A stretch of DNA of 64,000 nt. It comes from a virus. Positions 12,614 to 64,000 of the stretch are shown here, one piece after another. The first letter of the stretch is position 1. Each line of letters opens with the position of its first letter. Made by a program: the position numbers and the translations under genes. The notes under the pieces were generated by a model. That model was not told the origin of the DNA and did not search any database. It saw nothing but the letters and a program-made list of their open reading frames with translations. Where the stretch lies: IMG/VR virus record IMGVR_UViG_3300049491_000418, positions 1 to 64,000 of that record, one strand, 5' to 3'.

Positions 12614-13792
12614 ATGGCAGATTTTTCTATAACCACGCTCTTCGTAGTCCCTACTGGAACCACAACACTTCCTGCCTCAGGAAGCACACAGGACCTAGGT
12701 GCAGGAGCTTTCGGGTTTTTCAGAAATGACTACACTGTAGCTACAGCAGCTAACGTTGCAGCAGCTCCTTATTTCTACATTGCTCAAGGAAGACAAAATT
12801 CCTATTTGCAAGGAAGTAAGAGATCAGACAAGATTAAGGGATGCCCAACAGCAAACTGTAACTCTAACATCACTGAATTTTACAAAGTGGTAGGTTGTCC
12901 TACAGCAGCTGTACAAATTACTGATGTGTCTAACTGGACCGTACAATGCGGAGATGTTGTAACATTGACTCTTAGAGCTCACTCAAGCTACATTGATACA
13001 TTGTATTTCAATGGATTAACAAGATCAGTAACTGTTCAAGCACCTTGTTGTGATTGTGGAGCAGATCCTTGTGCTGATGTTGATGCTCAAGCATTAGTAG
13101 ATGCATTTATCTACAAATTACAACAACAAGCTCCAGGGAACAATCCTGATAATTCTTCTTTGAATAATTATTTTACATTCCAAAGAATTGGATCAGGTGC
13201 AGCTTCAATCTTAAGAATTACTGGAAAACCTTTAACAAAATATGGAGTACCATGTGATGTTGCTGCTTTCCCACATGAATATGATAGAATGTGGTTTAGA
13301 ACCTTTGTTTATGAAGGTCCTGCTACTACTGCAGATTTCATTGTAAATGATTCTTGTAATGAAGTAGCTGATGCTACCATTGTTCAAAGATCTTCTTATC
13401 CTACAGGAACTTCAGAAGAGATTAGACAATTGGAAAAAAACTATTACAGTTATCAAGCTGGATACCTAAAACATTTATACAGAATGGCAGGGTATAATCA
13501 AAACTTTGAATCATACGTGGTTGATGGTGCTGCTTATACTACTTACTACTTGAAGTATAATGAGATAGACAAAACAGCTTACAATTGGGGTGATTACATT
13601 CCAGAGGATCAAATGTCTATTATTGCAATCAATAATGCTGATGCAGCTTTGATTACTTTAGTTGATGCTTTCCTTGTGGCTGCCTTAGGTGCTACTGCTT
13701 CTGTTGCAATCAATGCTTGTATTACTACAACATCAACTACAACAGCAGCTCCTCCTGCAACAACAACAACAACTTCTACGCTTATTCCTTAA
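12614..13792 (+). CDS. Auxiliary capsid (cement/decoration) protein with C-terminal Thr-rich tail (gene 73-like)
   Basis: Synteny; high-expression codon usage in the 5' part; own downstream terminator; Cys-rich; ends CITTTSTTTAAPPATTTTTSTLIP. Confidence 0.65.
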   Translation: MADFSITTLFVVPTGTTTLPASGSTQDLGAGAFGFFRNDYTVATAANVAAAPYFYIAQGRQNSYLQGSKRSDKIKGCPTANCNSNITEFYKVVGCPTAAVQITDVSNWTVQCGDVVTLTLRAHSSYIDTLYFNGLTRSVTVQAPCCDCGADPCADVDAQALVDAFIYKLQQQAPGNNPDNSSLNNYFTFQRIGSGAASILRITGKPLTKYGVPCDVAAFPHEYDRMWFRTFVYEGPATTADFIVNDSCNEVADATIVQRSSYPTGTSEEIRQLEKNYYSYQAGYLKHLYRMAGYNQNFESYVVDGAAYTTYYLKYNEIDKTAYNWGDYIPEDQMSIIAINNADAALITLVDAFLVAALGATASVAINACITTTSTTTAAPPATTTTTSTLIP

Positions 13793-24174: not shown

Positions 24175-24335
24175 TGAAAAAGTTACAGGTAATAGTAATA
24201 ATAGTAATCATCTTATTCTTTGTGATAGGATGTACTTCTATTATTATCTTTTCACCTACATTTGCACCAAGAACAAATGTTGAGATTAATAAAGATTCAA
24301 TTAAAAATAAAGACTCAATTAAAAAGAAATTATGA
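24171..24335 (+). CDS. Small putative lipoprotein (54 aa), not in the ORF track
   Basis: MMKKLQVIVIIVIILFFVIG-CTSIII...: basic n-region, hydrophobic h-region, lipobox VIG-C; ATGA overlaps with both neighbours. Confidence 0.65.
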   Translation: MMKKLQVIVIIVIILFFVIGCTSIIIFSPTFAPRTNVEINKDSIKNKDSIKKKL

Positions 24336-25099
24336 CAGTGTTTATAATATTTACAACAGTAGGAGCAGATGCTGGTCCTTTTAATCTCTATTCTAATGTA
24401 GGAGGTTATGCTATTGCTTTTGAAGTAGGAATAACAAAAGCTCAGTTGCTTGCAGGGTTTCCATCATCTAATGTTCCTTTAGGAACCAACATAATAAGAG
24501 CACAATCTTTTGGAGTTTGTACTAATTATGTAGATTTACCATTATTACCTGCTCCTACATCTACAACTACTACCTCTACAACTTGTGCAGGTTTTGAATA
24601 TACAATGGATATATATTGGTGTGGATTATGTACTCCTTCAGGAGGTGGTTCTATGAGTAATACAGAACCTCTTACAGTGGGTAAATGGTATTATGATAGT
24701 GTTATTAACTCTATAATTACTCCTACTAGTTTTGTTGGATGTAATCCTGGAACTAATAGAAGTATTTTAGATAGTACTAAACAAGATACATGTGCCGCAG
24801 TAATTTGTCCACCAACAACTACTACAAGTAGTACTACAACTCCTCCTGCTTATTTAGTAAATGTTAGTAACTCTACAGGATTTTCAAATTGTGATGGAGG
24901 TGGTGTAACTACCTATCCAATAGCATTATATGTTGAATTTGTTCCTATTATATTTGGTTCTGTTCTATATTATGATTTTGATTTAACTCTTCCTTTTGCA
25001 GGAGATGGAACTTGGTATAGTGTGAGTAGTACATTATCTTATAGAATTAATAATATAGGAGAGGTTACTGAAATAGATGATTGTGGTCCTCCTCCATGA
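24332..25099 (+). CDS. Putative virion decoration protein: GPF anchor domain + Thr linkers + small Cys beta-domains
   Basis: N-terminus AGPFNLYSNV; tracts PAPTSTTTTSTTC and CPPTTTTSSTTTPP. Confidence 0.65.
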   Translation: MTVFIIFTTVGADAGPFNLYSNVGGYAIAFEVGITKAQLLAGFPSSNVPLGTNIIRAQSFGVCTNYVDLPLLPAPTSTTTTSTTCAGFEYTMDIYWCGLCTPSGGGSMSNTEPLTVGKWYYDSVINSIITPTSFVGCNPGTNRSILDSTKQDTCAAVICPPTTTTSSTTTPPAYLVNVSNSTGFSNCDGGGVTTYPIALYVEFVPIIFGSVLYYDFDLTLPFAGDGTWYSVSSTLSYRINNIGEVTEIDDCGPPP

Positions 25100-25148: not shown

Positions 25149-25751
25149 ATGACAGTATTATTAACATTAACAATAGCAGGAATAGATACAGGTCCTTTTG
25201 ATTTATACTCAAACGTGGATGGTTATTCTGTACCCTTTGAAACCAATATAAGTAAAGCAGCTTTACAAGGGGGATACTCCTCTGTATTGGTACCTGACTT
25301 TGCAATTGTTGTTAGAGTTGTGTCTAAAGGAGTATGTAATACTTATGTTGATATTGTTTTAGCCTCTCTTACAACTACAACATCTACAGCAGTACCTACC
25401 ACTACCACTACAACTACTTCAGGAGTAACTGTAGAATTTAGTGCAGCTTATACTCAAGCTTTAGAAGCACCTTTAGGAGATTCTGATGCTGGATTTTTAT
25501 CAGGTAACATAACAATAACAGGAGGTTCTGCAACATTCTTTGCTTTTGCTGAAATATTTGTAGATGCTGGAGTAGGTAGTAATTTCTTAACAGATATAGA
25601 TATAGCTGGAAACTTAGCAACTGCTTTTATAGATACTATTGGTATGGATACTTCTGCAGGAATTGTTTTAGGTCCAGGTATATATTCTTATACTATTGAT
25701 TTATCTGTAAACTCTGCTGATGGTGGAGGAGGTATTTCTTATACAATATAA
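25149..25751 (+). CDS. Putative virion decoration protein, paralogue of 24332 (GPF domain + Thr linker + beta domain)
   Basis: N-terminus TGPFDLYSNV; tract TTTTSTAVPTTTTTTTS. Confidence 0.65.
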   Translation: MTVLLTLTIAGIDTGPFDLYSNVDGYSVPFETNISKAALQGGYSSVLVPDFAIVVRVVSKGVCNTYVDIVLASLTTTTSTAVPTTTTTTTSGVTVEFSAAYTQALEAPLGDSDAGFLSGNITITGGSATFFAFAEIFVDAGVGSNFLTDIDIAGNLATAFIDTIGMDTSAGIVLGPGIYSYTIDLSVNSADGGGGISYTI

Positions 25752-25883: not shown

Positions 25884-26459
25884 ATGGCAAATAACAATGT
25901 TTCTTTAGAAAGAAGTTTAGAGATTAATTCTCCTGATTATTTACATAGATGTACAAAGTGTGGTATATTAAAACCAAATACTGAGTATTCTCCCTCTCCA
26001 AACAATAGAGTGATTAATAGTAGAGGTAGAAATTTTGTAACCTCGTGTAAATCGTGTAGAAATACTTATTCTTCTTCTAAAGAGGTATTAGAGAGAAAAA
26101 GACTTGCAGCACCAATAAGTAGACAAAAAAATAGAATAAATGTTATTTTTTGGTCTTCAGTTACTAATGCTAAAAAGAGAAATCTAGAGCATACTATAAG
26201 TATATTAGATTTAAAGGCTCTGTTTGAAGATCAATTAGGTCTGTGTTATTATACAGGAAAGCCAATGCTGAGAGATATTAGAGATATTAGTAGTAATGAT
26301 GATTCTGTATCTATAGATAGAGTTGATTCTTCTAAAGGATATACTAAAGAAAATATTGTTTTGTGTAGATGGGTAATCAATAGGATGAAAAATGATATAC
26401 CTTTTGATATTTTTTTAAAATTAATATCAGAAATTAATACTAAATTTAATATGTCATGA
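25884..26459 (+). mobile_element. Free-standing HNH-type (His-Me finger) homing endonuclease gene
   Basis: CTKCG...CKSC zinc finger; CYYTG...SIDRVDSSKGYTKENIVLC...INRMK nuclease motif; inserted between structural genes. Confidence 0.8.
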
Positions 26460-28629: not shown

Positions 28630-31600
28630 ATGGCTGAGGATAAAGACAAAAACTTGAAAGGAGAAATTAACTTTGAGTTTGGACAAGGGTTTAAAGGTCT
28701 TAATATGGATAATATTCCTAGTCAAATTGATAAGGGATCACTATCCTATGCTTTAAATGCTGCTATTGAAAACTTTGATGCCAACAGTATCACTTATCAA
28801 AATGAACCAGGTACAGAATTTTGCTTAAAGTTTCCAAAAGATTACATCTTAATAGGAAAATATCTTATTACAGAACAAAGCAAACAAGTTTTCTTCCTAG
28901 CTAATCCTTCTACAGGAGATAGTGAGATTGGTTACATGGTAAACAATGATTGTATTTACCACACTCTTGTTAATGATAAATGTTTGAATTTTGATGTAAG
29001 ATATCCTATCCATAAGGTAGTACACAAAACAAGTAATTGTGATACAGAAATCTATTGGGCTCAACCAAATGCTGATAGGAGATATATCAATATGGATCCT
29101 ACTAAAATACCTTATTTAGCTTTACCAGACAGTACTCCATGTGATGAGAAATTGACACTACAATTAGATTGTAATCAATTAAGAGTACAACCAAACTTTG
29201 ATATTCCTGGAATTATTGTTAAAGATGTTATAATTGGTGGTAATATTATTGCTGGGGTATATCAATTTGCTTTTCAATATTCTGATGCTTTAGGAAATCC
29301 TCTTACCTCTTACTATAGTATAACTAACCCTACTCCCATAGCAGATCCACAGTTTGCTTCAGTTAATTTTAATTATCCTGTAGGTAAATCCATTATTGTA
29401 GGTATTACTAATATTGAAACTGGTGGACAGTTTGAGTATTTTAATCTTGCTGTAATTAAAACAATCAATGCTATTACATCAGTTGACTTAATAGGTACTT
29501 ATAATATAGATAGTGATCAAAAAGATATAACATATGCTGGGCAGAATGTTTCATTAATTAACTTAACAGTTAATAATATCTTTGAGAAGTTTCCTTTCTA
29601 TGGTCCTGCTGATGATGTAACAACAGCACAAGATGTTCTTATATGGAAAGGATTATCTACTCCAGAGAGAATAAGTTATCAATCTATAGCAAATCAAATA
29701 ACTCTATTGTGGGAAACTGTTAGGATTCCTGCAACAGAAAACTATGCTGATGAATTAAATGCCACACATTTAAGAGGGTATTTAAGAGATGAAGTATATC
29801 CATTTGAATTTGTTCCTTTATTGAGAAGTGGACAACAAGTTGATGGATTTCACATTCCAGGAAGAGCACTAACTCTATCAGAGATAGCTTTACCTGTTAT
29901 TGATATATCTAATGATGATTTTACTGAAGATCCAGAATTATATCCAGATGGAGCACCTTATTGGAAAATATATAATACTGCTAAAGTAATAGGTAATTCT
30001 CCAGGATTTTCAACAGCCAGTGACTATAAAGGTCCTTATAATTATGGAATAATGGCATACTGGGAATCTAATGAAACTTATCCTTGTGATGAAGAAATGT
30101 GGGGAGAACTAGCTTCTCAACCTATTAGACACCATAAGTTTCCAGATGTATTAGTATCTCCCATTATAGAATCAAAAACAAATCCTCTTAATCTTGCATT
30201 AGAGATGGGGAATGATGCTGTGTTTCCTATTGGAGTTAGAGTTGATATAGAACAAATTAAACTATTAATAAAAACATCCTCTCTTACTGATTTACAAAAA
30301 GCTGATATTGTTGGCTTTAAGATTGTTAGAGGAGATAGAACTGATAATAAATCTATTGTTGCTAAAGGAATCCTTAGAAATGTTGGTACTTATAAAAGAG
30401 ATGACCAAGAGTTCTACTATCCTAATTATCCATATAATGATTTACATGCAGATCCTTTTTTAAATAGTAATAATAATGCTTACAATAGTGCTGCTAAATC
30501 TTGGTTAGTTATCTGTTCTGAAACAGGAGTGTTACAAATAGGAGATCCAGATACCAATAAACCAACTAAAAGAAATATGATTGCAGGTACAACAGAAGAA
30601 ATCTGTTCTACTTCTAGACCAGTTTATTTATCTGGTAAAGCAAATATAGGTCCTGCAGAGTATGATGTATGGTATGTTTATGACCATGGTTGTCATGGTA
30701 GTAGAGTAAATTGGGTAGATCCATTTAGTGATATTAATGCTGCCAACACTTTAAGAAGTGATTGGATGGAATCTATTTTTGGTATTAGTCAAAATCAACT
30801 TTATTGTAGAGTTGCTGTAGGTGGAAATGTAGAGTTTGAGTGTGATAATGGTGGATTTTTTGATCCTTGTGAATGTACACCTGTTCAAGTTTTTAAACCA
30901 TACACAAGTCAACCTGTAGATGTTATAGATTCTGATGGTGGTGGAGAAAATGATCCTCATATAGGAAGAAGAACTTTAAACAACTGTGAAGGAAATACTC
31001 CATTAGCACCTATTTCTACTAATGATTCATTAAGATATAGACAGATATTTAACTCTCCTGAAACCTCTTTTGGACAACCATTCCTAGGAGACATACTAAA
31101 GGCAGAGAGTGTTATATATGGTGGAGGTTTAGCTCACTTTGTTGAAGTAAAAGATAATGCTAAGTATAGATTGTTAACTAAAGAAGCTCAACAAGATGCT
31201 TTGACATCTGCAGGAGAAGTTGGTAATGGTGATGCAGCTGCTACCTTTACAGCATACCAAGCTTATCTTGAAATATATATTAATGGTATTACAAGAAAGA
31301 ACTATGCTTATTCTTTTAATTCTATAGCTGATTATAATTACTCTACTTCTATACCTAATGAACAAGGTATTAAACAAAGAAGACTTGACCTAAGAAGATA
31401 TCTTATCCCAGCAGTTCAAAATGTTGGAGAGAATGATATTGATATAAATAATTATCAAAGAGAATCATCTGTATATCTAAGAACAGATTTAGATATTGAC
31501 CCTCTTCCTTTCCCACATTTGAGTCCTAATATGATTCCTATTAATATTCAGGATATATCAAGATTCACTACAGGCTGTAGTGGTAGTACTACTTGTGTAG

Positions 31601-34251
31601 ATACATCTATGACAACTACAACTACAACTACATTCTATGTTCCTTATTGCCCTGGTTCATGTGCTGAGCCTGCCAAGAAACTACCTATTCAGGTTGTATC
31701 TTATTATGCTTCATTAAAAAATACATTTAGAGGACAGTGGGGACAAATTTATAGTTATCAAACTATTGATACTGGTTTTCAGGTAAATTTAGAAAATGAA
31801 GGTTCTGCTACCAAGATAGTTTTTGGTGGAGATACTTTTATCTCTAGGTTTGCTTTTAAAACTAAAGTTCCTTTCTTTATTGATAATAGAGTTGGAGCTC
31901 CTCAAGATAGTGAGGTATTTTATGATGAGTTAGGTAATATAGGTTATCCTAAATATTGGCATTCTTCTAGATCTATTTTAGAAGATTTTAATGTACCTGT
32001 TTTAGGAAACATGACTAATATTATTACTTACAAGGCACATAACTTTGATTGTCCAAATTGTCAAACAGTACCTGCAGTAGCTAATCCAAATAGAACTTTC
32101 TATGATGGTATATTTTATTTGTTTGCCTATGGAATACCTAACTTTTATGTTGAGACTAGTTATAATGTTGATTTAAGACAAGCTTTCAATAATAAGGAAG
32201 GAGACTTTTGGCCACATGTAAGTAATAGTATTCCTGATGATTGGGTACAAGAAAGTTTTGTAACTATTGCACAGGATAATACCTATTATTATAATGGATC
32301 ATTCTCTAAACAAAACACAGAGAATTATTTCTCTCATATACCAGCAAATTTTGAATTTGATGATTGTACTAGTAATTATCCATTTAGAGCTATATTTTCA
32401 GATCCTCAAATAGCTACAGCAGATACTACAGTTAATAACTGGTTGACATATAGAGCAAGTGCTTATTTTGATTTTCCTCAAAACTATGGGGCACTAACTT
32501 CATTGGATGGAATTGATAAAGGACAAGTATTGGCAAGATTTGAAAACAAAGCTTTATTATATAATGCATTATATACAACTCAAACAAATACAAATGGACA
32601 AGTTTATTTAGGACAATCATTGTTTACTAGACAACCACCTCCTTATGATTATGTAGAAACTGATTTAGGTTATTTAGGAAGTCAACATAAGTTTCTTCTT
32701 AAAATACCTCAAGGTCAAATAACTATTGATGCTAAGAGAGGTCAAGTGTTCCTTATGAACAATACTAAGGCACAAGATCTTTCAGCACCTGGTTCAGGTA
32801 TGAATAGATTCTTTACAGATCATTTGGCCTTTGAGATATTGAGATATTTTCCTAATGTTAATATTGACAACAATTTTAATAGAATAGGTCTTCATGGTGT
32901 ATATGATAGCAAATTTGATAGAGTTATTATAACCAAGCTTGATTATATTCCTTTAAGTACTGATATTGTATTTGATATGGATTCTCAGTCTTTCTATAAA
33001 GAGACTCAGGCAGAGATTGGTGTGTTTAAAGAACCAATTTCTGTAAATAATCCTGTTTACTTTTGTAATAAATCATGGACTATCTCTTATAGCTTTATTA
33101 CCAATAGTTGGTTATCTTTTCATAGTTATATACCTAATTGGTATATTGGTGAAAATAACTTTTTCTATTCTGGTAAAAAATCTTGTTGTGAACCTTTTAA
33201 ATTTTTAGCAGGAGAGATTATTGCAAATCCTTTAACAACCACAACAACAACTGCTTTCCCATTACCACCAACTACAACATCTACTACAACTATTGCTTTA
33301 GATTGTACATTGATTGGTGTGGCACAAGGAACTAGCTGTGAATTAGAAGGAACAGGTATAATAACCATACCTCCTCCAGGGCCTCCATGTACAAGACCTT
33401 CAGGATTAGATCCATTTGCATTATACACAGGTTACAATGTAATAGCTCCTCCTTCTTCAGTGGTTTCTACAGCTAGTTTTAGTGAAGCATGTAATGCTAA
33501 GTCATATATGTTGTATAATCTTGTCAATGTAACTCCTACTACTATAATAGGTTGGACAACTTCATTAGTTGTTGGTGTTACTGTATATGCTAATAATGCT
33601 ACTCAAGATTGTGAAGTTATACCAGATGGATTCTATTTCACACCTATAACTTTAGATGGTATTTATGAAGTTGTTAATGGTGTTATTGTATCAATAACTC
33701 CATGTAGTTTAACCACTACAACAACATCATCTTCCACAACTACAACTACAACTACAGCATTCCCAGTAATCCCTTGTAATTCATTAGTATCTTCTGGTGG
33801 AGTGGGTATAACAGAATACATAGTAGCTCTTGTATCAGAGGGTGGAACAGTAGCAATGGCATTAAATGCTGTAAGTGTTCCTGATAAATTAGAGATACTT
33901 CATAATGGTATTAAAAAAGCTACCTCAGGAATGACAACTCCTAATGAGGGACCATTTGATAACTTATATGGAGATCCTACAATTCCAACTGTACCTGAGA
34001 CAAATGCTACAGATCAATTTATTGGAACATCTAAAGGAACTATTCCTAATAGACAAGCTACATTTGCATCTGAAACAGGTTCAGGATTAATTATACCAGG
34101 AAGTTATCAACAAATAATCTGGTGGGAATACACTAATGCAGATTTTCTAATAAATCCTGTAGCAGTTATTAGAGTTACAGGTCCTGATACTACAGCTTGG
34201 GAGATACAAAGAATGTGTGAAACAACAACAACTACCACAACAACACCATAG
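28630..34251 (+). CDS. Muzzle/tail stabilisation protein, N-terminal and main part, with appended Thr-rich and adhesin-like modules
   Basis: 1873 aa; GLNMD...YALNA N-terminus, RGYLRDEVY, IRHHKFP, FGGDTFISRF and SWTISY...WLSFHSYIP motifs typical of the crAss-like Tstab; four poly-Thr tracts. Confidence 0.75.
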   Translation: MAEDKDKNLKGEINFEFGQGFKGLNMDNIPSQIDKGSLSYALNAAIENFDANSITYQNEPGTEFCLKFPKDYILIGKYLITEQSKQVFFLANPSTGDSEIGYMVNNDCIYHTLVNDKCLNFDVRYPIHKVVHKTSNCDTEIYWAQPNADRRYINMDPTKIPYLALPDSTPCDEKLTLQLDCNQLRVQPNFDIPGIIVKDVIIGGNIIAGVYQFAFQYSDALGNPLTSYYSITNPTPIADPQFASVNFNYPVGKSIIVGITNIETGGQFEYFNLAVIKTINAITSVDLIGTYNIDSDQKDITYAGQNVSLINLTVNNIFEKFPFYGPADDVTTAQDVLIWKGLSTPERISYQSIANQITLLWETVRIPATENYADELNATHLRGYLRDEVYPFEFVPLLRSGQQVDGFHIPGRALTLSEIALPVIDISNDDFTEDPELYPDGAPYWKIYNTAKVIGNSPGFSTASDYKGPYNYGIMAYWESNETYPCDEEMWGELASQPIRHHKFPDVLVSPIIESKTNPLNLALEMGNDAVFPIGVRVDIEQIKLLIKTSSLTDLQKADIVGFKIVRGDRTDNKSIVAKGILRNVGTYKRDDQEFYYPNYPYNDLHADPFLNSNNNAYNSAAKSWLVICSETGVLQIGDPDTNKPTKRNMIAGTTEEICSTSRPVYLSGKANIGPAEYDVWYVYDHGCHGSRVNWVDPFSDINAANTLRSDWMESIFGISQNQLYCRVAVGGNVEFECDNGGFFDPCECTPVQVFKPYTSQPVDVIDSDGGGENDPHIGRRTLNNCEGNTPLAPISTNDSLRYRQIFNSPETSFGQPFLGDILKAESVIYGGGLAHFVEVKDNAKYRLLTKEAQQDALTSAGEVGNGDAAATFTAYQAYLEIYINGITRKNYAYSFNSIADYNYSTSIPNEQGIKQRRLDLRRYLIPAVQNVGENDIDINNYQRESSVYLRTDLDIDPLPFPHLSPNMIPINIQDISRFTTGCSGSTTCVDTSMTTTTTTTFYVPYCPGSCAEPAKKLPIQVVSYYASLKNTFRGQWGQIYSYQTIDTGFQVNLENEGSATKIVFGGDTFISRFAFKTKVPFFIDNRVGAPQDSEVFYDELGNIGYPKYWHSSRSILEDFNVPVLGNMTNIITYKAHNFDCPNCQTVPAVANPNRTFYDGIFYLFAYGIPNFYVETSYNVDLRQAFNNKEGDFWPHVSNSIPDDWVQESFVTIAQDNTYYYNGSFSKQNTENYFSHIPANFEFDDCTSNYPFRAIFSDPQIATADTTVNNWLTYRASAYFDFPQNYGALTSLDGIDKGQVLARFENKALLYNALYTTQTNTNGQVYLGQSLFTRQPPPYDYVETDLGYLGSQHKFLLKIPQGQITIDAKRGQVFLMNNTKAQDLSAPGSGMNRFFTDHLAFEILRYFPNVNIDNNFNRIGLHGVYDSKFDRVIITKLDYIPLSTDIVFDMDSQSFYKETQAEIGVFKEPISVNNPVYFCNKSWTISYSFITNSWLSFHSYIPNWYIGENNFFYSGKKSCCEPFKFLAGEIIANPLTTTTTTAFPLPPTTTSTTTIALDCTLIGVAQGTSCELEGTGIITIPPPGPPCTRPSGLDPFALYTGYNVIAPPSSVVSTASFSEACNAKSYMLYNLVNVTPTTIIGWTTSLVVGVTVYANNATQDCEVIPDGFYFTPITLDGIYEVVNGVIVSITPCSLTTTTTSSSTTTTTTTAFPVIPCNSLVSSGGVGITEYIVALVSEGGTVAMALNAVSVPDKLEILHNGIKKATSGMTTPNEGPFDNLYGDPTIPTVPETNATDQFIGTSKGTIPNRQATFASETGSGLIIPGSYQQIIWWEYTNADFLINPVAVIRVTGPDTTAWEIQRMCETTTTTTTTP

Positions 34252-52100: not shown

Positions 52101-55100
52101 ATGAGCTTAAACCAGAGTTTCTTGCACAGAAACTTGAGGTAATGGCTGTCAACTATATGATAGCTAACATTGAGTTCCACAAACTTATATATTCAGATCC
52201 TTATCAATACTCTGATGAGCTTAAACGTATCAAAAACTTTAACTCACCAAGACAAGCTCTTGTATTTAATTCTCAAACATTAGGTAAGTTTTTACAAGAC
52301 TTCTATAATAAAGGAGTTAATCCAAAAGATAAAGCAGCCTACACTGATTTCCAAAGAGATCATTTTAGAACAGTTACTATTGATGATATATTTAGTACTA
52401 ATAAAAATAAAGACTATGAAGATCCTTTTGAGGAAACAGATGGTGGTGGTTATATTACTATCCAAGCATTACGTAAGTTTAGATTAAGACTTGGTGATTG
52501 GACTCCTGCTAATGAAAGACAATTCCAATTTGACTTAGACTATGAAAGAAAGGTTAAAGCTGGTGCTAGTGCAGAAGATCTTAGAAAATTTCTTAAAAGA
52601 AATCCTAATATCAAAAACACTTATACTCCTGTTAAACCTATTGTATCTGGTAATAAAGAAAATGGTAGAGACTTCAATGATGTTGTATTACACAAATTTG
52701 CATTAGTGCCTCTTTCTTATAGAGTACTTCATGAGTTACAAGAAAATAGTTATGCCATTAAACTTCTTGATAAGATGGTTAATGATGACATTGACTATGC
52801 TGTATATGCTTCGGGTAGTAAAGTTGGTACTGAGACAGTACATGAGCTTTATAATGAAGATGGTACTTTTAATAATACTCCTTTTGAATCTCAAAGAGAG
52901 AAAGAAGGATTCTTACCTAACAATGTAAAACGTGGTGTATCAAATATTCCTTTCTCTATTGTAGGTTTACAAACTGAAGTTCCTTCAAAAGACACTCCTT
53001 TAGTTACTCAAGGATCACAAATAACCAAGTTGGTTACTATGGACTTTATGGAAGCTGGTATGCCTGTTGACTTCATGCCTGAGGCAGAATTTATGGATAG
53101 ATTTGCTGTTTGGACTACCACTGATGAAGAGGGTAGAATGAAATCTGAGCTATATAGAATGGTTCAACATAATCAAAATCTTCTTGAAGCAAAAATTGTG
53201 GAAGGGTATAATTCTCTTCTTAAAAAACTAGGAATTGTTCAAGGTAAAGAGGGTGACAATCTTACTTTCACTATTACAGATAGAGATAAGTTCATTAAAA
53301 CTCTTAAGGATGAGATCCTTAAAAGAGAAGTTAACTATAATATAACTGATTCTTTTGATGGATTTGAGAGTGGACATGTTGTTCTTGAAGCTACTCCAGC
53401 ATATCAACAGATTAGAAACATTCTTTATTCTATTGCAGATAAGAATGTTGTTAGACCTAAGATCTCTGGAGGTATGAAAGTACAAATTCCTTCTTCATTG
53501 TTATTGGAACAACACAGAGTGAATATTGGTTCCTTTAAAAACAAAGCAGGGGAAATCAAACAAATCTTTGAGTCTAGTGAATTAGAGTTCTACACAAAAT
53601 CAGAAGATGGTAAGTCAGTTAATGTAGCTGAGATAATGGTTGGTAGATGGTTCAAAAGTGATAAGACTGATGAAGAGTTGATTGAATATTTCAATAATGA
53701 TCCAGAAGGTAAAAAACAACTTGAAGCATTAGCAGGTATAGCCTTTAGGATTCCTACTCAAAAACAAAACTCTATTGATGTATTCAAGATTAAGAAGTTT
53801 CTTCCTAAGGACTTTGGAGATAGTGTTGTGGTTCCTTCTGCCTTGGTTAAGAAAGTAGGATCGGATTTTGATATTGATAAATTGTCAATCTATTTGAAAA
53901 ACCTATATCCAGGAAAGGATAAAAATTTAAAAACTGTTCCTTATTTAGGAACTGGTGATCAAGCTCTTGACAAATTTAGAAAGCTTTTTGATGAAGGAGA
54001 GTTTGATGAATATGTAAAAACATTTAAAGATTTTCTAGATCTTGATAGTGCTGAGGATAGATTACTTGAAAGTATTTTTCCTGAAGACTATGCAGAACAA
54101 AGATCAATACAAAAAGAGGATGTAGTTAATAAATTATATAAAGAGTCTCTTGAGAATGAATATATAAGATCATTAGAAGGGCTTGTATCTCATCCTAGTA
54201 ACTATGAGGCTTTGGTAAAACCAAACTCAGCTCAAGATCTTAAAGATATAACTAATGATATAAATGAGAGAAAAGGATTGGAGAAAACTGATTATACTAA
54301 TGTAGGTAATATGCTTAACAGAGGATTTATGTCTAAACAAAGACATGAGTTTGTTACTGGTAAACAAGCTATTGGTATTGCTGCAGTTGCTCAAACTAAT
54401 CACTCTCAAAATCAAAGAAGCCCATTATTTCTTGATTTCAGAAAACTTAAGAAAGAAGGCATGGATGAATTGGATAGAACTCTTTTGGGTGGAAATCCTA
54501 AAGCTAAATCATATGCAAATAATCCTAGAATAAACTTTAAACATTATAATTCAATTTTGGTTGATGGTATTGCATTTCCTACTTTATCTCTTATTAAAGC
54601 AGCAGGACAGGCTACAGAATATATCTCAGATACAATTGGGATGTTTATTGATGGTTATGTGGATGTTGCTAAAGGTGGATGGATTATGGAGATGGGTGCA
54701 ACTCCTAATACTGCAGGTACCTGGTTGTACTTGATTAAGATAGGAGTTCCTATTAAAGATGTTGCATACTTCATGAATCAACCTATTATTGTTGACTATT
54801 TACAAAGAATAGAGAATAAAGGTCAAACTTGGTTATTCTCAGAAGGAAACATACTTAAAACTCTAGAGTTATATGAAAGTCCAGAGGATACCAGTAAACC
54901 AGAAGTAAGAGCTGTCATAGATAGTATAACATCAATTCCTAATCTATCAACATTAAAAAGTAATATTGGTAAGACTATTGAAGATATGACTCCTCAAGAG
55001 TTATATGAGCAACACTTTATGTTGAAAGAGTTTGTTAAATATGCTAAACAAGCATCTCAATTATTTGAGGTAACTCAGGGTTCTAACCATGATACAGCAA

Positions 55101-57131: not shown

Positions 57132-60100
57132 ATGAGCTGTAAAATTCAAATAAAAGAGAATATTACTCAAGTTATTGAGAAGAAAACTAGTGGTGCTACT
57201 GAAAAACCATTAGAAGAAGCTCAGGCTATTGGGATAGAAGTAAACAGTCAATTTGGTGTTGATGTTGTTTCCTTCTCCCAAACTCCAGATTATCTTGTAA
57301 AGAGAACTATTTCTATTCCTGATAGTCTTGTAGATATCTATTATGATAATGAAGTAGCTTTAGAGGAATCAGAGAAGGCATCTATTGTTGAAACTCCCAG
57401 TATTGTACCCACTTCTAAGGCTACTAGTGAAACTCTTATTAAGGTAAAAGAGGTTATGCAACAAATGAAAGTAAGTTTTCAATTATTGCATGACTACGCA
57501 AAAGGTAACCCAGCAATAGAAACAAAAGATGTTAGTGGACTTGCTGATCTATCTGCAGGAGTAATAGCTGTAGCTCAAGGTTCAGAAAGTGCTACATTAA
57601 CAGAGGAAATGGTCCATATAGCTACTGCTATTTTGGAACAAACAGATCCTAAGTTAATAACATCACTTATATCTAAGATTGAGAGATTTAAAATTTACAA
57701 ACTTACTTATGATGCTTATAAAGGAAATAAGAATTACCAGTTATCAAATGGTAAACCAGACATACGTAAGATTAAAAAAGAAGCTGTTGATAAACTGATT
57801 GCTGAATATATTGTTAAACAATCTCAAGGTAACTCAGATTTTCCAGAACTTACTGAACAAAGAGAAAGAAACTTGGTTCAATCATGGTGGGATTCTATTC
57901 TTGAATATTTAAGAAGCTTGTATGGTAAATCTAAAGTGGATTTATTTGCACAAGCTGCAGATCATATCATGTCTGGTAATATAGGTACTATTGAAGATAT
58001 TAAAGCTCAAGGAGTTTACTATCAATTAGGAACTGATGCAGTTGGAGATAATCCTCTTGTTGATAAGTTTGTTAATATCATCAATGACATTGACAGTAGA
58101 ATGAAACTTGATCCTAATCCTTCAGATAGACATTATACATTAGATGGTGAAAGGGTAGCAACTAGTGTTACTGAGAAGATTGGTAAATCTAAAAATCTAC
58201 CTGATAGAACTCCTGAACAAAAGATTAGTGATGATCAAAAGAAAACATGGGGTTCTGAAGGACATATGTATATTGAAAAGTATATAAAAACCAATCTTAT
58301 AGATCAAGATGGATTTAAAAAACCATTTACAAATAGTCTTATAAATACTACTCTTGATAGTGAAGCTCAAGAAAAACTTAATAGGTTTGCTGAGAACTTG
58401 ATTAATTCCTATCCTAAAGGAACAAGATTTCTTATTGAAAAGAAAGCAGTTAATCAAAGAGAAAAAGGTATGCTTGGATCTACAATAGATTTCATAGCTG
58501 TATATCCTGCAAAAAAAGTAGATGGTTCTCCAGATGTGAATATAGATATACTTGACTGGAAGTTCACTGATATAGATAAATCTATAGAGGAAGATGTTCC
58601 ATATGTTAAACAAAAAGACTGGAAGCCTCAGATGGGTGAGTATACCAAGATGATGTATGAATACGGTTTCAAACCTGGTCAGATTAAAAAAGCCAGAATG
58701 ATTCCTTTCATTATGAATTATGACAATATTGTTAAAGGAGATAGAAAAAGTGGTTTAAGACCAACCTCTATTGAAATTGGAAAGGTTGACAGTCTTACTG
58801 AAACTAATTTATATTTACTTCCTGTTCCAATCAATTCTGAGAGCACAGGAAATGATGCCATTGATGATTTGTTGAAATCTCTTAGAGGATACTGGGAGAA
58901 AATGTATTCAAAACAAGTTATTCCAGAAGCCAGAGCAACAAAACTGATTCATTTGAATCAATTAAGTAAAGCTATCCGTATATTACATGTTACTTTGAAC
59001 TTTGCTCCTCTTGTAAGTGTTGGTAAAACCTTCATCTCAACCTCTAGGGCTTCTCTAGATTCATTTAAAGGTGTGGATTATACTAAGTTATCAAAAGAAC
59101 AAATTGAGGCCAAATTACAAGACTTAATTGAGTTTAAAAACACTGCATTGAACTTTGCATCATTAGATGAGGCATATATTTCTCATTATGGAGATGTTAA
59201 TCTTACTGATGAGGCAAATAAAATATTATTAGGTCTTAAAGCTGTTTCTGCAAATGCCAAATCTAAATTAAAGGAAATTCTAGAACTTCAAAAAGAATAT
59301 GTAGCACAAATTGCTGTTAGAGAAAATTTTGTTAATGAAAACAATAAAACTTCTTTATTTGATGCTGAGAAAGAGATTGGTGCACTTATCAAAAATTTTG
59401 TAGAAGGAAGTAGACTTCCCGCCAAGCTTATAAATTTTGCTTCTAATCTTATCATGAGAGTGAAAAGATCTGCTGAGAAAAGATTCATAGAGAAGTTTGA
59501 TGAATTTAAAAAAGTATTACTTCCTTTAGAAGAGGAAGCTTCTAGACAAGGTAAAAGAGCATTTGATATGATAGGAACTGTTGATAAAACAGGACTACAT
59601 CTTATAAAAAAAGTTGATAAAAAGTTCTGGACCGATGTAAAGGATGCTAAAGAGAAAGGTAAGGAGAACAAAAAATTTCTTATGGATAATATGGATATGG
59701 AAAAATTCAATTCCTTGGCTAAAGAAGCTATAAATAAAGGAGTTGAAGAGCTTAAACTTATAGAGTTCTCTATGGACAAAGAAAAAGATGATTATATTAG
59801 AAGTGGTAAGATCAAACGTCTAAGAAAATCAGTAGATATTAATAGAGAAGACTTTAATGGTTATAATGAATACCTATTCAACCATATTTTTAGACAAGTT
59901 GTTAAGGCAGATGATCATTTATCTGAGGAATACAAGCAAATGAGTAAAAGTAAAGCATCCTTAGATGCTTGGAACTTCTTTACAGCAATGAATGAGAAAG
60001 CTAGAGACATAGGATACATTGATAAACAAGGTATGTCCTTCTTTCCATTGATTGAAGCTAGTATTGTTGATAAATTTAGACAAACAAGTAATGCTGGAGT

Positions 60101-62027
60101 TGAGTTAAAGAACTTCTTTAAAGATTTATATACTGTTAGAGAGTCTGAAGAGCAAATTTTCTCTAAAAAAGATTCAGAAACAGGAGAAATTAAGAAATCT
60201 ATACCAAAACACTTCACAAAACAAGGAAATCTTGCTACAGAAAGACTTTCTACTGATTTAAACAAGGTAGGGGCACTCTGGATCAAAGCTTTAATGGATT
60301 ATGAAGCCAAACAATCAATTGAGAATACCCTATTAACTATTCAGGCTGTTGAAAGAGCTAAAGGAAGTCTTGTTGTTAATGAACAAGGTGATTTAGTTAG
60401 TGAAGGGGGTAAGTTTGTTGTTAATAAATCTGTAAATAAGAATGCAGATATAATGGAAGCCATCTTAAATGATGCTATATATGATTTGCAGGAAGACTTA
60501 GGGAATATTGGTAACATTACTATCCAAAAAACAGCAAACAAACTTGGTAAAACAGCTGAAGGTAAAGAAAACCTAAATGTATCTATTAAAAAAGGACTTA
60601 AGAATGCTGATACTCTTACTAGAGCTCTTGCTGTTGGTCTAAAACCATTAATTGGTTTGGCTAACTGGATGGGTTATAATTTACATGCTGTTATTACAGG
60701 AGGTAATATGTATACTGTTGCAGAATTTATGAAAAACAATGCAAGAGTAACTGTATTTGGAGGACTCTCATTAGAACATAAAGCTCTATTACACTTAGTA
60801 ACTACTGCTCCTGATGATGAGATGACAGAGATGAGAAGAAAAGCAGCCAGAGAAAAAAGTCTAATATCTTATCTTTCCACATGGTCATTCAGTGATGTTA
60901 TGATGCTCACTAACTCTTTCCCTGAAAGAAAATTAGCTTTAGCTAGCGCTAAAAGCTTTAATGACAATGCTATAATAATTGATGGTAAGATTGTAAATGC
61001 CAGACAATATCTTAGAAAACAAGATAGATCTCAAAAATATAAGTTATCTCCTTCTGAAAGAAAGGTTCTTGAAAGATCCTTTGATGATAGAGTTAAATCT
61101 TTATTAGAATCTTCAACCAAGTTAACTTCAGCTGTTAAAGTAACAGATGAAAAGATTACAATTGAAGGAGTATTAGAAGATGAGATTGTAAAATATAGTT
61201 TGAAAGTATCTGAATTTTCCAGAAACATGAATGGCTCTATGAACATAGATAACAAAGCTGGTTATAGAAGAGATACCATGTTCAGTTCATTTATGATGTT
61301 TAAGAACTGGATCCCTAAATTATTAATTTCTAGAACAGGAGAGATAAAATATAACCTTGAAACAGAAGATTGGGAGTATGGTAGAATGAGAGCATTTGCT
61401 AAGGTATTTGCTGATAGTGGCTTTAGTGTTATTAAGAATATGAGAGCAATTATAACAGGTTCTCCTGAAGGACTAGCTATCCTTGATAGACTTCTACAGG
61501 AAAAGAAAGATGCATACTTTGAAAAAACTGGTCAAGAGTTAGAAATAACTGAAGAGGAGTTTTATGATTTAATGAGAAGAGAACTTGTTAATGAAGCCAA
61601 AGAACTTGGTATGTTATTTACCACATTTGCTATGGCAGCTATGATAGGTTTTATAAAACCACCTGAAGATGCTACAAATGATGAAAAAAATAAATGGAAG
61701 TTATGGGCTAAAGCATCTAATAAGATAGCGGAAGAACTTAGTTTTTATTATAGTCCTTTATCTATGGAAAGTATTACTAAAGGAAGTATATTACCTTCTT
61801 TAGGTTTATTAACAAAAGCATGGAGATTTTTTACAGCATTTAGTAAAGAATCTTATGGATATACAACAGGAGATGAAGAACTAATGGATAAAACATATCC
61901 TATTAAGTATTTCTTTAATTTAATACCTGGATTGGCTCAATTTCAAAATGATTATCTTCCATACATTGATGCAGAACTTGCTAAAGAGATGGGTATAAGA
62001 GTTACAGTAGAAGCCAGAAGACAATAA
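57132..62027 (+). CDS. Giant internal virion protein with degenerate zincin and PD-(D/E)xK-like domains
   Basis: 1631 aa; LTEEMVHIA...KKEAVDKL; G..GH..IE...E...STIDF...DILDWK; helical C-terminus typical of the gene after the RNAP in crAss-like phages. Confidence 0.65.
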   Translation: MSCKIQIKENITQVIEKKTSGATEKPLEEAQAIGIEVNSQFGVDVVSFSQTPDYLVKRTISIPDSLVDIYYDNEVALEESEKASIVETPSIVPTSKATSETLIKVKEVMQQMKVSFQLLHDYAKGNPAIETKDVSGLADLSAGVIAVAQGSESATLTEEMVHIATAILEQTDPKLITSLISKIERFKIYKLTYDAYKGNKNYQLSNGKPDIRKIKKEAVDKLIAEYIVKQSQGNSDFPELTEQRERNLVQSWWDSILEYLRSLYGKSKVDLFAQAADHIMSGNIGTIEDIKAQGVYYQLGTDAVGDNPLVDKFVNIINDIDSRMKLDPNPSDRHYTLDGERVATSVTEKIGKSKNLPDRTPEQKISDDQKKTWGSEGHMYIEKYIKTNLIDQDGFKKPFTNSLINTTLDSEAQEKLNRFAENLINSYPKGTRFLIEKKAVNQREKGMLGSTIDFIAVYPAKKVDGSPDVNIDILDWKFTDIDKSIEEDVPYVKQKDWKPQMGEYTKMMYEYGFKPGQIKKARMIPFIMNYDNIVKGDRKSGLRPTSIEIGKVDSLTETNLYLLPVPINSESTGNDAIDDLLKSLRGYWEKMYSKQVIPEARATKLIHLNQLSKAIRILHVTLNFAPLVSVGKTFISTSRASLDSFKGVDYTKLSKEQIEAKLQDLIEFKNTALNFASLDEAYISHYGDVNLTDEANKILLGLKAVSANAKSKLKEILELQKEYVAQIAVRENFVNENNKTSLFDAEKEIGALIKNFVEGSRLPAKLINFASNLIMRVKRSAEKRFIEKFDEFKKVLLPLEEEASRQGKRAFDMIGTVDKTGLHLIKKVDKKFWTDVKDAKEKGKENKKFLMDNMDMEKFNSLAKEAINKGVEELKLIEFSMDKEKDDYIRSGKIKRLRKSVDINREDFNGYNEYLFNHIFRQVVKADDHLSEEYKQMSKSKASLDAWNFFTAMNEKARDIGYIDKQGMSFFPLIEASIVDKFRQTSNAGVELKNFFKDLYTVRESEEQIFSKKDSETGEIKKSIPKHFTKQGNLATERLSTDLNKVGALWIKALMDYEAKQSIENTLLTIQAVERAKGSLVVNEQGDLVSEGGKFVVNKSVNKNADIMEAILNDAIYDLQEDLGNIGNITIQKTANKLGKTAEGKENLNVSIKKGLKNADTLTRALAVGLKPLIGLANWMGYNLHAVITGGNMYTVAEFMKNNARVTVFGGLSLEHKALLHLVTTAPDDEMTEMRRKAAREKSLISYLSTWSFSDVMMLTNSFPERKLALASAKSFNDNAIIIDGKIVNARQYLRKQDRSQKYKLSPSERKVLERSFDDRVKSLLESSTKLTSAVKVTDEKITIEGVLEDEIVKYSLKVSEFSRNMNGSMNIDNKAGYRRDTMFSSFMMFKNWIPKLLISRTGEIKYNLETEDWEYGRMRAFAKVFADSGFSVIKNMRAIITGSPEGLAILDRLLQEKKDAYFEKTGQELEITEEEFYDLMRRELVNEAKELGMLFTTFAMAAMIGFIKPPEDATNDEKNKWKLWAKASNKIAEELSFYYSPLSMESITKGSILPSLGLLTKAWRFFTAFSKESYGYTTGDEELMDKTYPIKYFFNLIPGLAQFQNDYLPYIDAELAKEMGIRVTVEARRQ

Positions 62028-62032
62028 TTTAC

Positions 62033-62040
62033 TATATTTG
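62033..62040 (+). promoter_or_regulatory. Bacteroidota -7 promoter box (TATATTTG) for the fibre/poly-Thr/glycosyltransferase unit
   Basis: Exact TAnnTTTG match in the 36-nt intergenic gap, ending 24 nt before ATG 62064. Confidence 0.6.
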
Positions 62041-62063: not shown

Positions 62064-62693
62064 ATGGGAACACCAAGCAAACAAATTGGATGGAGTCAGG
62101 AATCAAACCTACTTCATGCAATATTAAGACAACTTGATCAACTTGCTGGCGTAATAGCTGTCAGTGGAGGAGGTGGACTAGATAACTTTGTTACTCTAAA
62201 TACAGTCCAACCTATTGTTGCAAGGAAAGATTTCTCTGTAGTTGCAGGACCTGCATCTACTTTTACATCTTCTACTGGAAATACAGTGAATGTTACTGCC
62301 ACTACTGGTAGTGGTGTATATAGTACATCTGTTGATGGCCCAGCTATAGAAGGATTTTCAGTTAATGATCCAGGTATTTTTGGGTATTCCAGTAATAGTG
62401 CTGGTGTATTTGCTCACTCACAGAACTTTGTTGCTCTTATTGTAGACTCTTTAAATCCAGGGAACCTTAGTGATTTAGCTAATTTTAATCTTAATGGAGT
62501 ACCTGCAGTTAGAATTACTAATAATGGTAAATTAAGTCTAAAAGCTTCTACAACATTAGCTGCAGTATTAAATTTACCTGTAGGAGTTGCTCCTACTGCT
62601 CCTGCTGATGGAGACATTTGGTTAGAGAGCACTGCTTTAACAGGGTTAAAAATAAGATTAGGTGGAGTAACTAGAACTTTAACTATAACATAA
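62064..62693 (+). CDS. Short fibre/decoration protein (QIGWSQE anchor + beta-solenoid + tip domain)
   Basis: N-terminus KQIGWSQESNLL; G-rich 11-aa repeats; C-terminus similar to that of fibre 14808. Confidence 0.65.
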   Translation: MGTPSKQIGWSQESNLLHAILRQLDQLAGVIAVSGGGGLDNFVTLNTVQPIVARKDFSVVAGPASTFTSSTGNTVNVTATTGSGVYSTSVDGPAIEGFSVNDPGIFGYSSNSAGVFAHSQNFVALIVDSLNPGNLSDLANFNLNGVPAVRITNNGKLSLKASTTLAAVLNLPVGVAPTAPADGDIWLESTALTGLKIRLGGVTRTLTIT

Positions 62694-62830
62694 TGTCATA
62701 TATCCCACGCCAGATAGGATGGTCTCAGGAGGCAATCCTATTGCAGAAAATATTGAAGAAGTTGATAGGTATTACTAAACTTGCAGCAGCTGCAAGCCCA
62801 GCAACTACAACTACTACAACTACACTATAA
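62693..62830 (+). CDS. 45-aa QIGWSQE-anchor peptide with poly-Thr tail, not in the ORF track
   Basis: MSYIPRQIGWSQEAILLQKILKKLIGITKLAAAASPATTTTTTTL*; TAATG overlap with the previous gene; paralogous N-terminus. Confidence 0.8.
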   Translation: MSYIPRQIGWSQEAILLQKILKKLIGITKLAAAASPATTTTTTTL

Positions 62831-62851: not shown

Positions 62852-63919
62852 ATGAGAGAGCTAGCCTTCATTACGGCATGCCCAGATGATACTTACTTTA
62901 CATGGCAAGTACATTTGTGGCTTGAAAGTTTAAGAGAGATTGGGAAATCAGATAAAGCAGTAGTGCTTGTTTTTACTCCAGTCTTTAGGGATCAAAACCC
63001 TAAGTGGGAACAAATTGTGGACTTATATCCAGAAGCTGTTTTTAATTTTTACAAAGATGAAGATAACATCTCTTCTTTATTAGGAATTTATATTCCAGTG
63101 TTAAGACCTTATCTTATGTGGAGATTTCTTAAGGAAAATCCTGTATACACAAGTAAGGCATTGTTTTATTGTGATAGTGATATTCTCTTTACAGAGAAGT
63201 TCAATGTTGATGATTTCTTAGAAGATGATATTAATTACCTATCAGATACTAATAGCTATATAAATGCTGATTACTTTGATAGTAAAGTAAAAGATGTTCT
63301 TCCTGAGAAATTAGAAGAATACAAAACAAGAGATATCCTTGGTGAAGTAACCAGTTTAATTGGTATCACAAGGGAAATCTGTGAAGCAAATAATAAGAAC
63401 TCTGGAGGGGCTCAATATTTGCTAAAGAACATGGATAGTTCTTTCTGGTCTAAGGTTATGAATGACTGTATAATCATTAGAACCTATTTACTAAAAATAA
63501 ATAGAGAATTCTTTAAAGATGAGAATGCAGGATTTCAAAGTTGGTGTGCTGACATGTTTGCTGTTCTTTGGAACATTTGGTTAAGAAAACAGGAAACAAA
63601 AGTTATACCTGAATTAAATTTTGCTTGGTCTACTGATCCTATAGAAAAACTTCAAGAGACTACCATCTTGCATAATGCAGGAATTGTAGGAGAGTTTCAA
63701 ACTACTGGAACAAGTCACAAAATGACTAAGTCTGGAATGCTTACAGTACATGAGGGTTATAATGCCTTTTACAAGGGTAAGTATCATCAAGGATCAGATC
63801 CTATGATGGATCCACACTTAGACAAAGTATTAAATGATACTAACTCTCAGAAACATTGCACTTGGTTTTATGCCAAGAAATTAAAAGAATTAAGTAACAA
63901 ATTTCAATTACAGTACTGA
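62852..63919 (+). CDS. GT-A fold glycosyltransferase resembling plant protein O-glycosyltransferases (GT96 SERGT1 / GT95 HPAT)
   Basis: DxD motif LFYCDSDILF; YFTWQ; YIPVLRPY; GGAQYLL; WCADMFAV; ILHNAG; no signal peptide. Confidence 0.75.
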   Translation: MRELAFITACPDDTYFTWQVHLWLESLREIGKSDKAVVLVFTPVFRDQNPKWEQIVDLYPEAVFNFYKDEDNISSLLGIYIPVLRPYLMWRFLKENPVYTSKALFYCDSDILFTEKFNVDDFLEDDINYLSDTNSYINADYFDSKVKDVLPEKLEEYKTRDILGEVTSLIGITREICEANNKNSGGAQYLLKNMDSSFWSKVMNDCIIIRTYLLKINREFFKDENAGFQSWCADMFAVLWNIWLRKQETKVIPELNFAWSTDPIEKLQETTILHNAGIVGEFQTTGTSHKMTKSGMLTVHEGYNAFYKGKYHQGSDPMMDPHLDKVLNDTNSQKHCTWFYAKKLKELSNKFQLQY

Positions 63920-64000
63920 TGAAAGATTATAATGGACTCATAAATCTAAACTATCCTGTTAAACCTTATTGTCTCTATATGATACATAATGATGATGACA
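63919..64000 (+). CDS. Partial ORF (start only)
   Basis: TGATG overlap; MKDYNGLINLNYPVKPYCLYMIHNDDD... runs off the window; YCLYMIHN is faintly GIY-YIG-like. Confidence 0.4.
   Translation, partial: MKDYNGLINLNYPVKPYCLYMIHNDDD

Follow-up and report, generated by a model that had tools for sequence, protein, structure and literature searches.

A soluble phage glycosyltransferase genetically associated with poly-threonine tags and its predicted role in virion O-glycosylation

Introduction

Virion glycosylation is already established in mycobacteriophages, where phage-encoded glycosyltransferases (GTs) modify the C-termini of capsid and tail tube subunits, as stated in the passages of PMC12619734 and PMC10877033 that cite Freeman 2023. 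Among peptide O-glycosyltransferases, the HPATs are described as plant-specific Golgi type II membrane proteins that founded family GT95 and are related to GT96/SGT1; both families act on runs of hydroxy amino acids, the acceptors being hydroxyproline (Hyp) for HPAT and the serine of Ser-Hyp4 for SGT1 (PMC8012813). Here we analyze a GT gene at 62852..63919 (+ strand) in bases 1-64000 (hereafter the window) of the 106,775-bp virus record IMGVR_UViG_3300049491_000418 from IMG/VR, for which CheckV estimates 92% completeness. We consider it likely that the gene encodes a soluble, cytoplasmic, metal-dependent GT-A enzyme that O-glycosylates threonine (Thr)-run tags on phage particle proteins.

As far as the cited passages describe the mycobacteriophage system, its likeness to the one proposed here lies in the site of modification; our enzyme belongs to the unnamed family PHROG 4417. 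The capsid and tail proteins modified there are also the tag bearers in those Firmicutes and Actinobacteria phages that carry the enzyme. In relatives of the query, at the gene and sequence level, the GT gene has capsid or tail tube genes as neighbors within the structural module, as in the mycobacteriophage type; in this genome it stands at the 3' end of the module beside tagged stub proteins. The two systems differ in their hosts, which here comprise Bacteroidota, Firmicutes and that of one Arcanobacterium phage, and in the tag, which is pure poly-Thr and occurs also on tiny stand-alone stubs. Our literature coverage was incomplete and yielded no description of this GT family, of poly-Thr tags as acceptors, or of virion glycosylation in Bacteroidota or Firmicutes phages.

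Results

The GT gene is one ATG-to-stop open reading frame (ORF) of 355 amino acids (aa). It contains, in the order given by the first-pass annotation, all six of the motifs listed there: YFTWQ (residues 15-19), YIPVLRP (80-86), CDSDILF (107-113), GGAQY (185-189), WCADMF (231-236) and ILH (272-274). In an alignment of 87 homologues with 28-46% identity to the query, residues Y80, D108, D110, Y136, Q229, F257, H274 and K308 are invariant, while G185, G186 and Q188 are at least 90% conserved. Since the motif positions coincide with conserved residues of this alignment, the six motifs are the conserved core of the family and no chance strings. A HMMER search of 1.84 billion representatives returned 735 homologous clusters at E<=1e-3, of which 194 reached E<=1e-30. 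The sole named match is PHROG 4417 (‘unknown function’; E=3e-53, residues 6-282 against profile positions 3-253 of 293). The query matched no Pfam family at E<=10, GT8 (PF01501) included, and searches of the PDB by sequence, with a single or a profile query, gave nothing meaningful.

The AlphaFold2 model, computed with the alignment, shows a GT-A fold with a pLDDT of 97.3 and a pTM of 0.93. In the predicted model a Rossmann-like alpha/beta/alpha core carries the DxD motif after its central strand, and a beta-hairpin (282-304) and a C-terminal helix are additional to the fold of GT8 enzymes. The DxD motif, D108-S109-D110 (63173..63181, +), lies at the end of strand 103-107, and H274 (63671..63673, +) is part of a conserved (I/L)xHNAG block. 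GT8 enzymes use the DxD together with a distal histidine as metal ligands. By analogy to GT8, GT6 and GT24 enzymes, the DxD would bind Mn2+ and a UDP-sugar, and H274 would be the third metal ligand, as in GT8; H274 and K308 together recall the metal and diphosphate ligands of that family. With the GT-A fold and the DxD plus histidine, the earlier assignment as a phage glycosyltransferase stands. The protein has no transmembrane segment, signal peptide or hydrophobic segment (maximum KD19 of 1.05) and begins straight in strand 1. As judged from these two properties, the enzyme is soluble and cytoplasmic, in agreement with the first-pass annotation.

Foldseek against the PDB placed glycogenin (GT8) at the top, followed by the UGGT catalytic domain (GT24), MNT2, WbbM, xyloside xylosyltransferase and alpha-1,3-GalT (GT6). 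The structural matches scored 14.4 for LgtC (rmsd of 3.7 Å over 242 residues aligned), 14.3 for glycogenin, 14.2 for the Skp1 alpha-galactosyltransferase (Gat1), 13.7 for UGGT, 13.3 for GlyE, which takes part in serine-rich-repeat protein glycosylation, 13.0 for LARGE1 and 12.5 for BoGT6a. Every top-tier match is a GT-A enzyme with a retaining mechanism, and several of them glycosylate proteins in the cytoplasm. By analogy with GT8-like enzymes, the mechanism of the query is probably retaining too. The GT8 enzymes LgtC, glycogenin, Gat1 and GlyE nevertheless share only 10-14% identity with the query, which lacks a Pfam GT8 match, and language-model similarity to GT8 clusters is low (0.87). Under the top tier, at 11.4, ranks A64R of Chlorovirus PBCV-1, a cytoplasmic GT which that virus encodes and which acts on the major capsid protein. 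This enzyme belongs to a eukaryotic giant virus and differs in acceptor context, poly-Thr tags being absent from the A64R system. In a viral structure library the only close matches were an uncultured Caudovirales protein (E 1e-29) and Orf49 of Lactobacillus phage LP65 (E 1e-13); the GT8-like giant-virus enzymes rank after the latter.

The acceptor is suggested by the genes that accompany the enzyme. Among 80 IMG/VR loci whose GT is 62-74% identical to the query, poly-Thr tracts reach a density of 1.41/kb in the kilobase upstream of the GT gene and of 1.17/kb across the gene and the first kilobase downstream. Further away the density is ~0-0.1/kb, and on the other strand it is zero. In 56/75 loci a micro-ORF (median 51 aa) combining a helix with poly-Thr precedes the GT by no more than 400 nt, a tagged small ORF (median 77 aa) follows it in 62/72, and tagged ORFs flank it on both sides in 42/67. 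The 46-residue N-domain of the downstream Thr-rich protein follows the GT in 77 of the 80 relatives.

The same association is found in independent phages. A poly-Thr tract is present in a gene adjoining the GT in Chryseobacterium phage MA9V-3 (locus L001) and in loci L007, L010, L011 and L012, and at L009 the tagged gene lies 1 kb upstream. Homologues occur in 77 phage records, from which we examined 12 loci of Enterococcus, Lactococcus, Lactobacillus/Lacticaseibacillus, Clostridium, Staphylococcus and Arcanobacterium phages. Poly-Thr tracts occur at all 12 of these Firmicutes/Actinobacteria phage loci, mostly no more than 5 residues from the C-terminus; their bearers are genes that annotation or position marks as capsid or major tail protein genes, or else small head-associated proteins. 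The GT gene comes directly after a tagged gene at six of these loci, and in phiFL1A the start of gp51 (the GT) meets the stop codon of gp50, the major tail protein gene. Arcanobacterium phage TPWB06 has a major tail protein that itself ends in T9, and the 3' end of its gene is overlapped by an 84-aa ORF with four long Thr tracts (L124:7672-7926), which may represent either a frameshift extension or a tagged stub of its own.

The tail protein of phiFL1A allows a comparison of phages with and without the enzyme. Orthologues of gp50 with 53-60% identity occur in Streptococcus and Bacillus phages, genera that are missing from the list of GT matches. In Javan505, Javan311, Javan570, phiGBSVK-C and Lactobacillus phage Bassarid the tail protein ends at or shortly after ‘...PGETTGDY...’ and has no Thr run. 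A GT profile search over the whole records of these five tag-free phages found no homologue (0/5), while the identical search detected the enzyme in all five carriers used as positive control (5/5, E<=1e-63). The two carriers with the orthologous tail protein, phiFL1A and R3.3, are GT-positive and have the poly-Thr tail. Thus, tag and GT were gained or lost together within one tail-protein orthologue family. Together with the synteny, this strongly indicates a Thr-directed protein acceptor, so that a cytoplasmic viral Thr-O-glycosyltransferase acting on peptides, as envisaged by the first-pass annotation, is well supported by the genetic data.

Homologues on bacterial chromosomes show another pattern. 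At 22 chromosomal Bacteroidota loci (L013-L034; Sphingobacterium, Pedobacter, Chitinophaga, Elizabethkingia and others) the encoded proteins are more distant from the query and 450-711 aa long, and 3/6 of those tested have a second, C-terminal GT domain (Glyco_transf_7C; one also weakly GT2). Those with the second GT domain resemble polysaccharide enzymes, and the chromosomal homologues are probably a cellular branch with another acceptor. They speak for the explanation that the phage enzyme has a non-protein acceptor, for which a host envelope polysaccharide or teichoic acid, a lipid carrier and the phage DNA are candidates, and that its poly-Thr neighbors are coincidental linkers. The polysaccharide or teichoic acid case would amount to lysogenic conversion or superinfection exclusion. 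LgtC, the highest-scoring of the structural matches, is a lipo-oligosaccharide galactosyltransferase, and the classical phage GTs modify DNA or the host serotype, both of which fit such an acceptor. The phage loci do not: there the GT gene belongs to a structural module or closes it, and in half of the 12 it stands directly behind a tagged capsid, tail or small head-associated gene and not near replication or lysogeny genes. The sharp enrichment of tracts within 1 kb of the GT and the joint gain and loss of tag and enzyme also argue against coincidence. We therefore regard a non-protein acceptor as very unlikely.

Several points nonetheless weigh against glycosylation of Thr tags. The evidence for the acceptor is throughout a genetic association, and the poly-Thr runs could be plain flexible linkers. 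The 80 close relatives represent one phage lineage and therefore count as roughly one observation. At the 22 chromosomal loci (~280 kb) no poly-Thr tract was found in a plausible gene, and because these homologues lack poly-Thr neighbors the family probably has further acceptors as well. Finally, several tagged proteins of the phage studied here have no recognized virion function.

A second question is whether the enzyme places the first sugar. Glycogenin, a self-glucosylating GT8 enzyme, and the glycan-elongating Skp1 alpha-GalT are among the top structural matches, and two tyrosines, Y80 and Y136, are invariant. These observations are compatible with an enzyme that elongates a sugar set on Thr by a host enzyme or that glycosylates itself as a primer, like glycogenin. 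Against this, no GT2 or GT1/4 gene was found in five small carrier phages of 35-39 kb or in the present genome, and no phage-encoded initiator is evident. Moreover, the hosts belong to three phyla (Bacteroidota, Firmicutes and Actinobacteria), which makes a common host-encoded cytoplasmic Thr-initiating enzyme unlikely. Elongation or self-priming is the least probable of the alternatives that we considered. Because the five small carriers lack GT2 and GT1/4 genes, the enzyme is instead probably an initiating, peptide-directed transferase. Its relatives include fusions to GT2, GT25, GT6, GT32, GT60-type GlcNAc-transferase, O-fucosyltransferase and methyltransferase domains, which point to multi-step glycan assembly. 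One metagenomic protein, P0147 (1369 aa), joins the GT domain to an O-fucosyltransferase, a GT60-type GlcNAc-transferase (PF11397) and an F5/8 type C lectin-like domain, and by its domain content would be a four-domain protein-glycosylation enzyme.

By eye, the first-pass annotation had likened the motifs to those of plant HPAT and SGT1 enzymes, families it held to be known mainly from plants and algae. That premise is inapplicable here, as the query family is widespread in phages and bacteria. The strong form of the kinship would place the enzyme within plant/algal GT95 and GT96, or derive it directly from them, by specific common origin. This concerns classification and is compatible with a function on Thr tags. 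HPAT-labeled clusters are indeed the nearest named neighbors of the query in language-model space: 22 of the 30 nearest named ESM-Atlas clusters, with scores of 0.96-0.97, have the HPAT family PF23452 on 10-58% of their members. When the HPAT clusters are removed, DUF7164 comes next (0.90-0.96), with GT6/GT8 clusters at 0.87. PF23452 is also the sole Pfam family matched by more than one of the 87 homologues, three of which match it below threshold (best E 0.012; the curated cut-off is 23.9 bits). In addition, both families would be peptide O-glycosyltransferases on runs of hydroxy amino acids, if the function predicted for the query is correct. The acceptors differ, however, being Hyp and Ser in the plant families and, as the genetic context suggests, Thr runs here.

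Direct searches did not support membership. PF23452 gave no match at E<=10 on the query or its genome, no match in ten homologue-bearing records, and none in 40 individually scanned members of the 87, including the most ‘HPAT-like’ motif variants; such variants did not predict PF23452 matches. A profile search limited to longer proteins retrieved no plant SGT1 and only nine fused bacterial or viral forms, and the search for proteins of near-query length was filled by close unnamed relatives. PF23452 members were likewise found in none of 401 Myxococcota genomes and none of 5 homologue-bearing genomes, a result of little weight since the control also gave no match. The HPAT-labeled Atlas clusters come from viruses or bacteria, and they may simply lie at the margin of the query's own family. 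HPATs are furthermore Golgi type II membrane proteins, while the query is soluble and has no membrane anchor. We therefore consider it unlikely that the enzyme belongs to GT95 or GT96. What persists of the proposed kinship is a distant link, a weak lead given by the Atlas neighbors and the three sub-threshold matches. The first-pass annotation had also held that best structural matches among GT8 or lipopolysaccharide (LPS) enzymes would refute it, and LgtC and glycogenin are the best matches. This is in our judgment an unfair test, because neither GT95 nor GT96 has, to our knowledge, a solved structure.

The window codes for terminase, portal, major head, tail and ‘virion structural’ proteins and for two giant ORFs, all on the + strand, with the GT gene closing this structural block at its 3' end. 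Tracts of five or more Thr number 20 and are all in + strand genes, while the frames of the other strand hold one tract. Just upstream of the GT, and ending 21 nt before its start, a 45-aa microprotein (62693..62830, +) starts with a QIGWSQE helix, continues with an Ala-rich spacer and ends in T7. Within the structural module, the 1873-aa virion structural protein (28630..34251, +; PHROG 37948, E=3e-101) has five poly-Thr tracts including a C-terminal T8. A 200-aa protein (25149..25751, +) without a family match has a TTTTST...TTTTTTTS linker, and a 255-aa protein (24332..25099, +) without a PHROG match has two Ser/Thr tracts. Downstream of the major head protein gene, a 392-aa protein (12614..13792, +) with no PHROG or PDB match ends in a TTTSTTT...TTTTTST tail. 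These five proteins are candidate acceptors.

The gene that usually follows the GT is found outside the window (genome 64659-65258, +). It encodes a 199-aa mucin-like protein with eight Thr tracts, composed of the conserved 46-residue N-domain, ~110 residues of TTTSTTT-type repeats and an acidic poly-Asp/(D-x)n tail with a GHGHGHVH stretch. The Thr-rich region is much expanded in this protein, as homologues in the relatives are usually only 61-140 aa long. A homing-endonuclease gene with Pfam GIY-YIG and NUMOD3 domains (genome 63919-64632, +; 63919..64000 in the window) splits the GT from this partner and is present in only 11 of the 80 relatives. A second GIY-YIG/NUMOD homing-endonuclease gene lies at genome 67851-68507 (-).

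About 3 kb downstream of the GT, the genome encodes an S-adenosylmethionine (SAM) methyltransferase (PF08241; genome 66475-67125, -), and at a similar distance of ~3 kb a GT6 enzyme (PF03414, 57 bits against a 25-bit cut-off; genome 67118-67915, -). Both domain types occur fused to the GT family elsewhere. Only 2/80 relatives have the GT6 enzyme and 0/80 the methyltransferase, so we rejected them as conserved parts of the system and regard them as accessories of this genome.

The GT and the 45-aa gene form an apparent string with a 209-aa protein gene (62064..62693, +) as its first member. The 209-aa protein has no Thr tract and no Pfam or PHROG match, and a homologue is present in 17/80 relatives. 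It begins with the same QIGWSQE helix as the 45-aa protein, these being the only two occurrences in the genome. A TATATTTG box lies at 62033-62040, 24 nt upstream of the 209-aa gene. The exact octamer is not enriched, occurring four times in the window against eight expected from shuffling, and the box was therefore not used as promoter evidence.

Directly upstream of the cassette, at the end of the structural module, are the two giant ORFs of 4671 aa (43112-57127, +) and 1631 aa (57132-62027, +), which may be virion-packaged or tail-associated giant proteins. An endonuclease VII/HNH-like gene (25884-26459, +; PHROG 3322/1035) sits within the structural module between Thr-tagged and virion structural genes. 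The head protein has a single distant match among 50,697 phage records (a Leptolyngbya phage, 26% identity), and PDB sequence searches with it and with two tagged proteins gave no match. Among genomes, the closest GT homologues come from bins assigned to Bacteroidota (Cytophagales, Saprospiraceae, Sediminibacterium), and some of their contigs measure ~112 kb. The host of the phage is therefore likely, though unproven, to be a member of the Bacteroidota.

Discussion

The proposed pathway would begin with D108/D110 and H274 holding Mn2+ and a UDP-sugar. The enzyme would then put the first sugar on the hydroxyls of Thr runs of about T5-T20. These runs would serve as portable tags at the C-termini or in linkers of particle proteins, receiving the sugar either ahead of virion assembly or while it proceeds. 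The acceptors in this phage are likely to be the 45-aa ‘helix + T7’ stub, the 199-aa mucin-like protein and the Thr tracts of the four structural-module proteins; the small tagged proteins, too, would then be located in the virion. The GT6 enzyme and the SAM methyltransferase may extend or methylate the glycan, and the outcome would be a glycan-coated virion.

A wider proposal combines a portable poly-Thr tag and one cognate cytoplasmic Thr-O-glycosyltransferase, both occurring widely in the phages of at least three bacterial phyla, with a family that is the prokaryotic or viral sister, or even the source, of GT95/GT96. We regard this combination as doubtful. If kinship with HPAT/SGT1 were true, it would help to explain how peptide O-glycosylation arose in plants and give the ‘plant-specific’ families a deep non-plant root. 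If the tag system and the sister relationship both held, they would offer a minimal orthogonal glyco-tagging tool. A T7-T20 tag and one soluble enzyme make up a very simple system, which is therefore directly testable and potentially useful for cytoplasmic glyco-engineering.

If correct, glycosylation of Thr tags would give PHROG 4417 a function, and with it hundreds of ‘hypothetical’ genes, including those of dairy phages (Lactococcus, Lactobacillus) and of Enterococcus and Staphylococcus phages considered for therapy. Because mycobacteriophages are reportedly recognized differently by the immune system depending on their virion glycans, this may be relevant to phage therapy. It would also extend virion glycosylation from the mycobacteriophages to phages of Bacteroidota, Firmicutes and other Actinobacteria.

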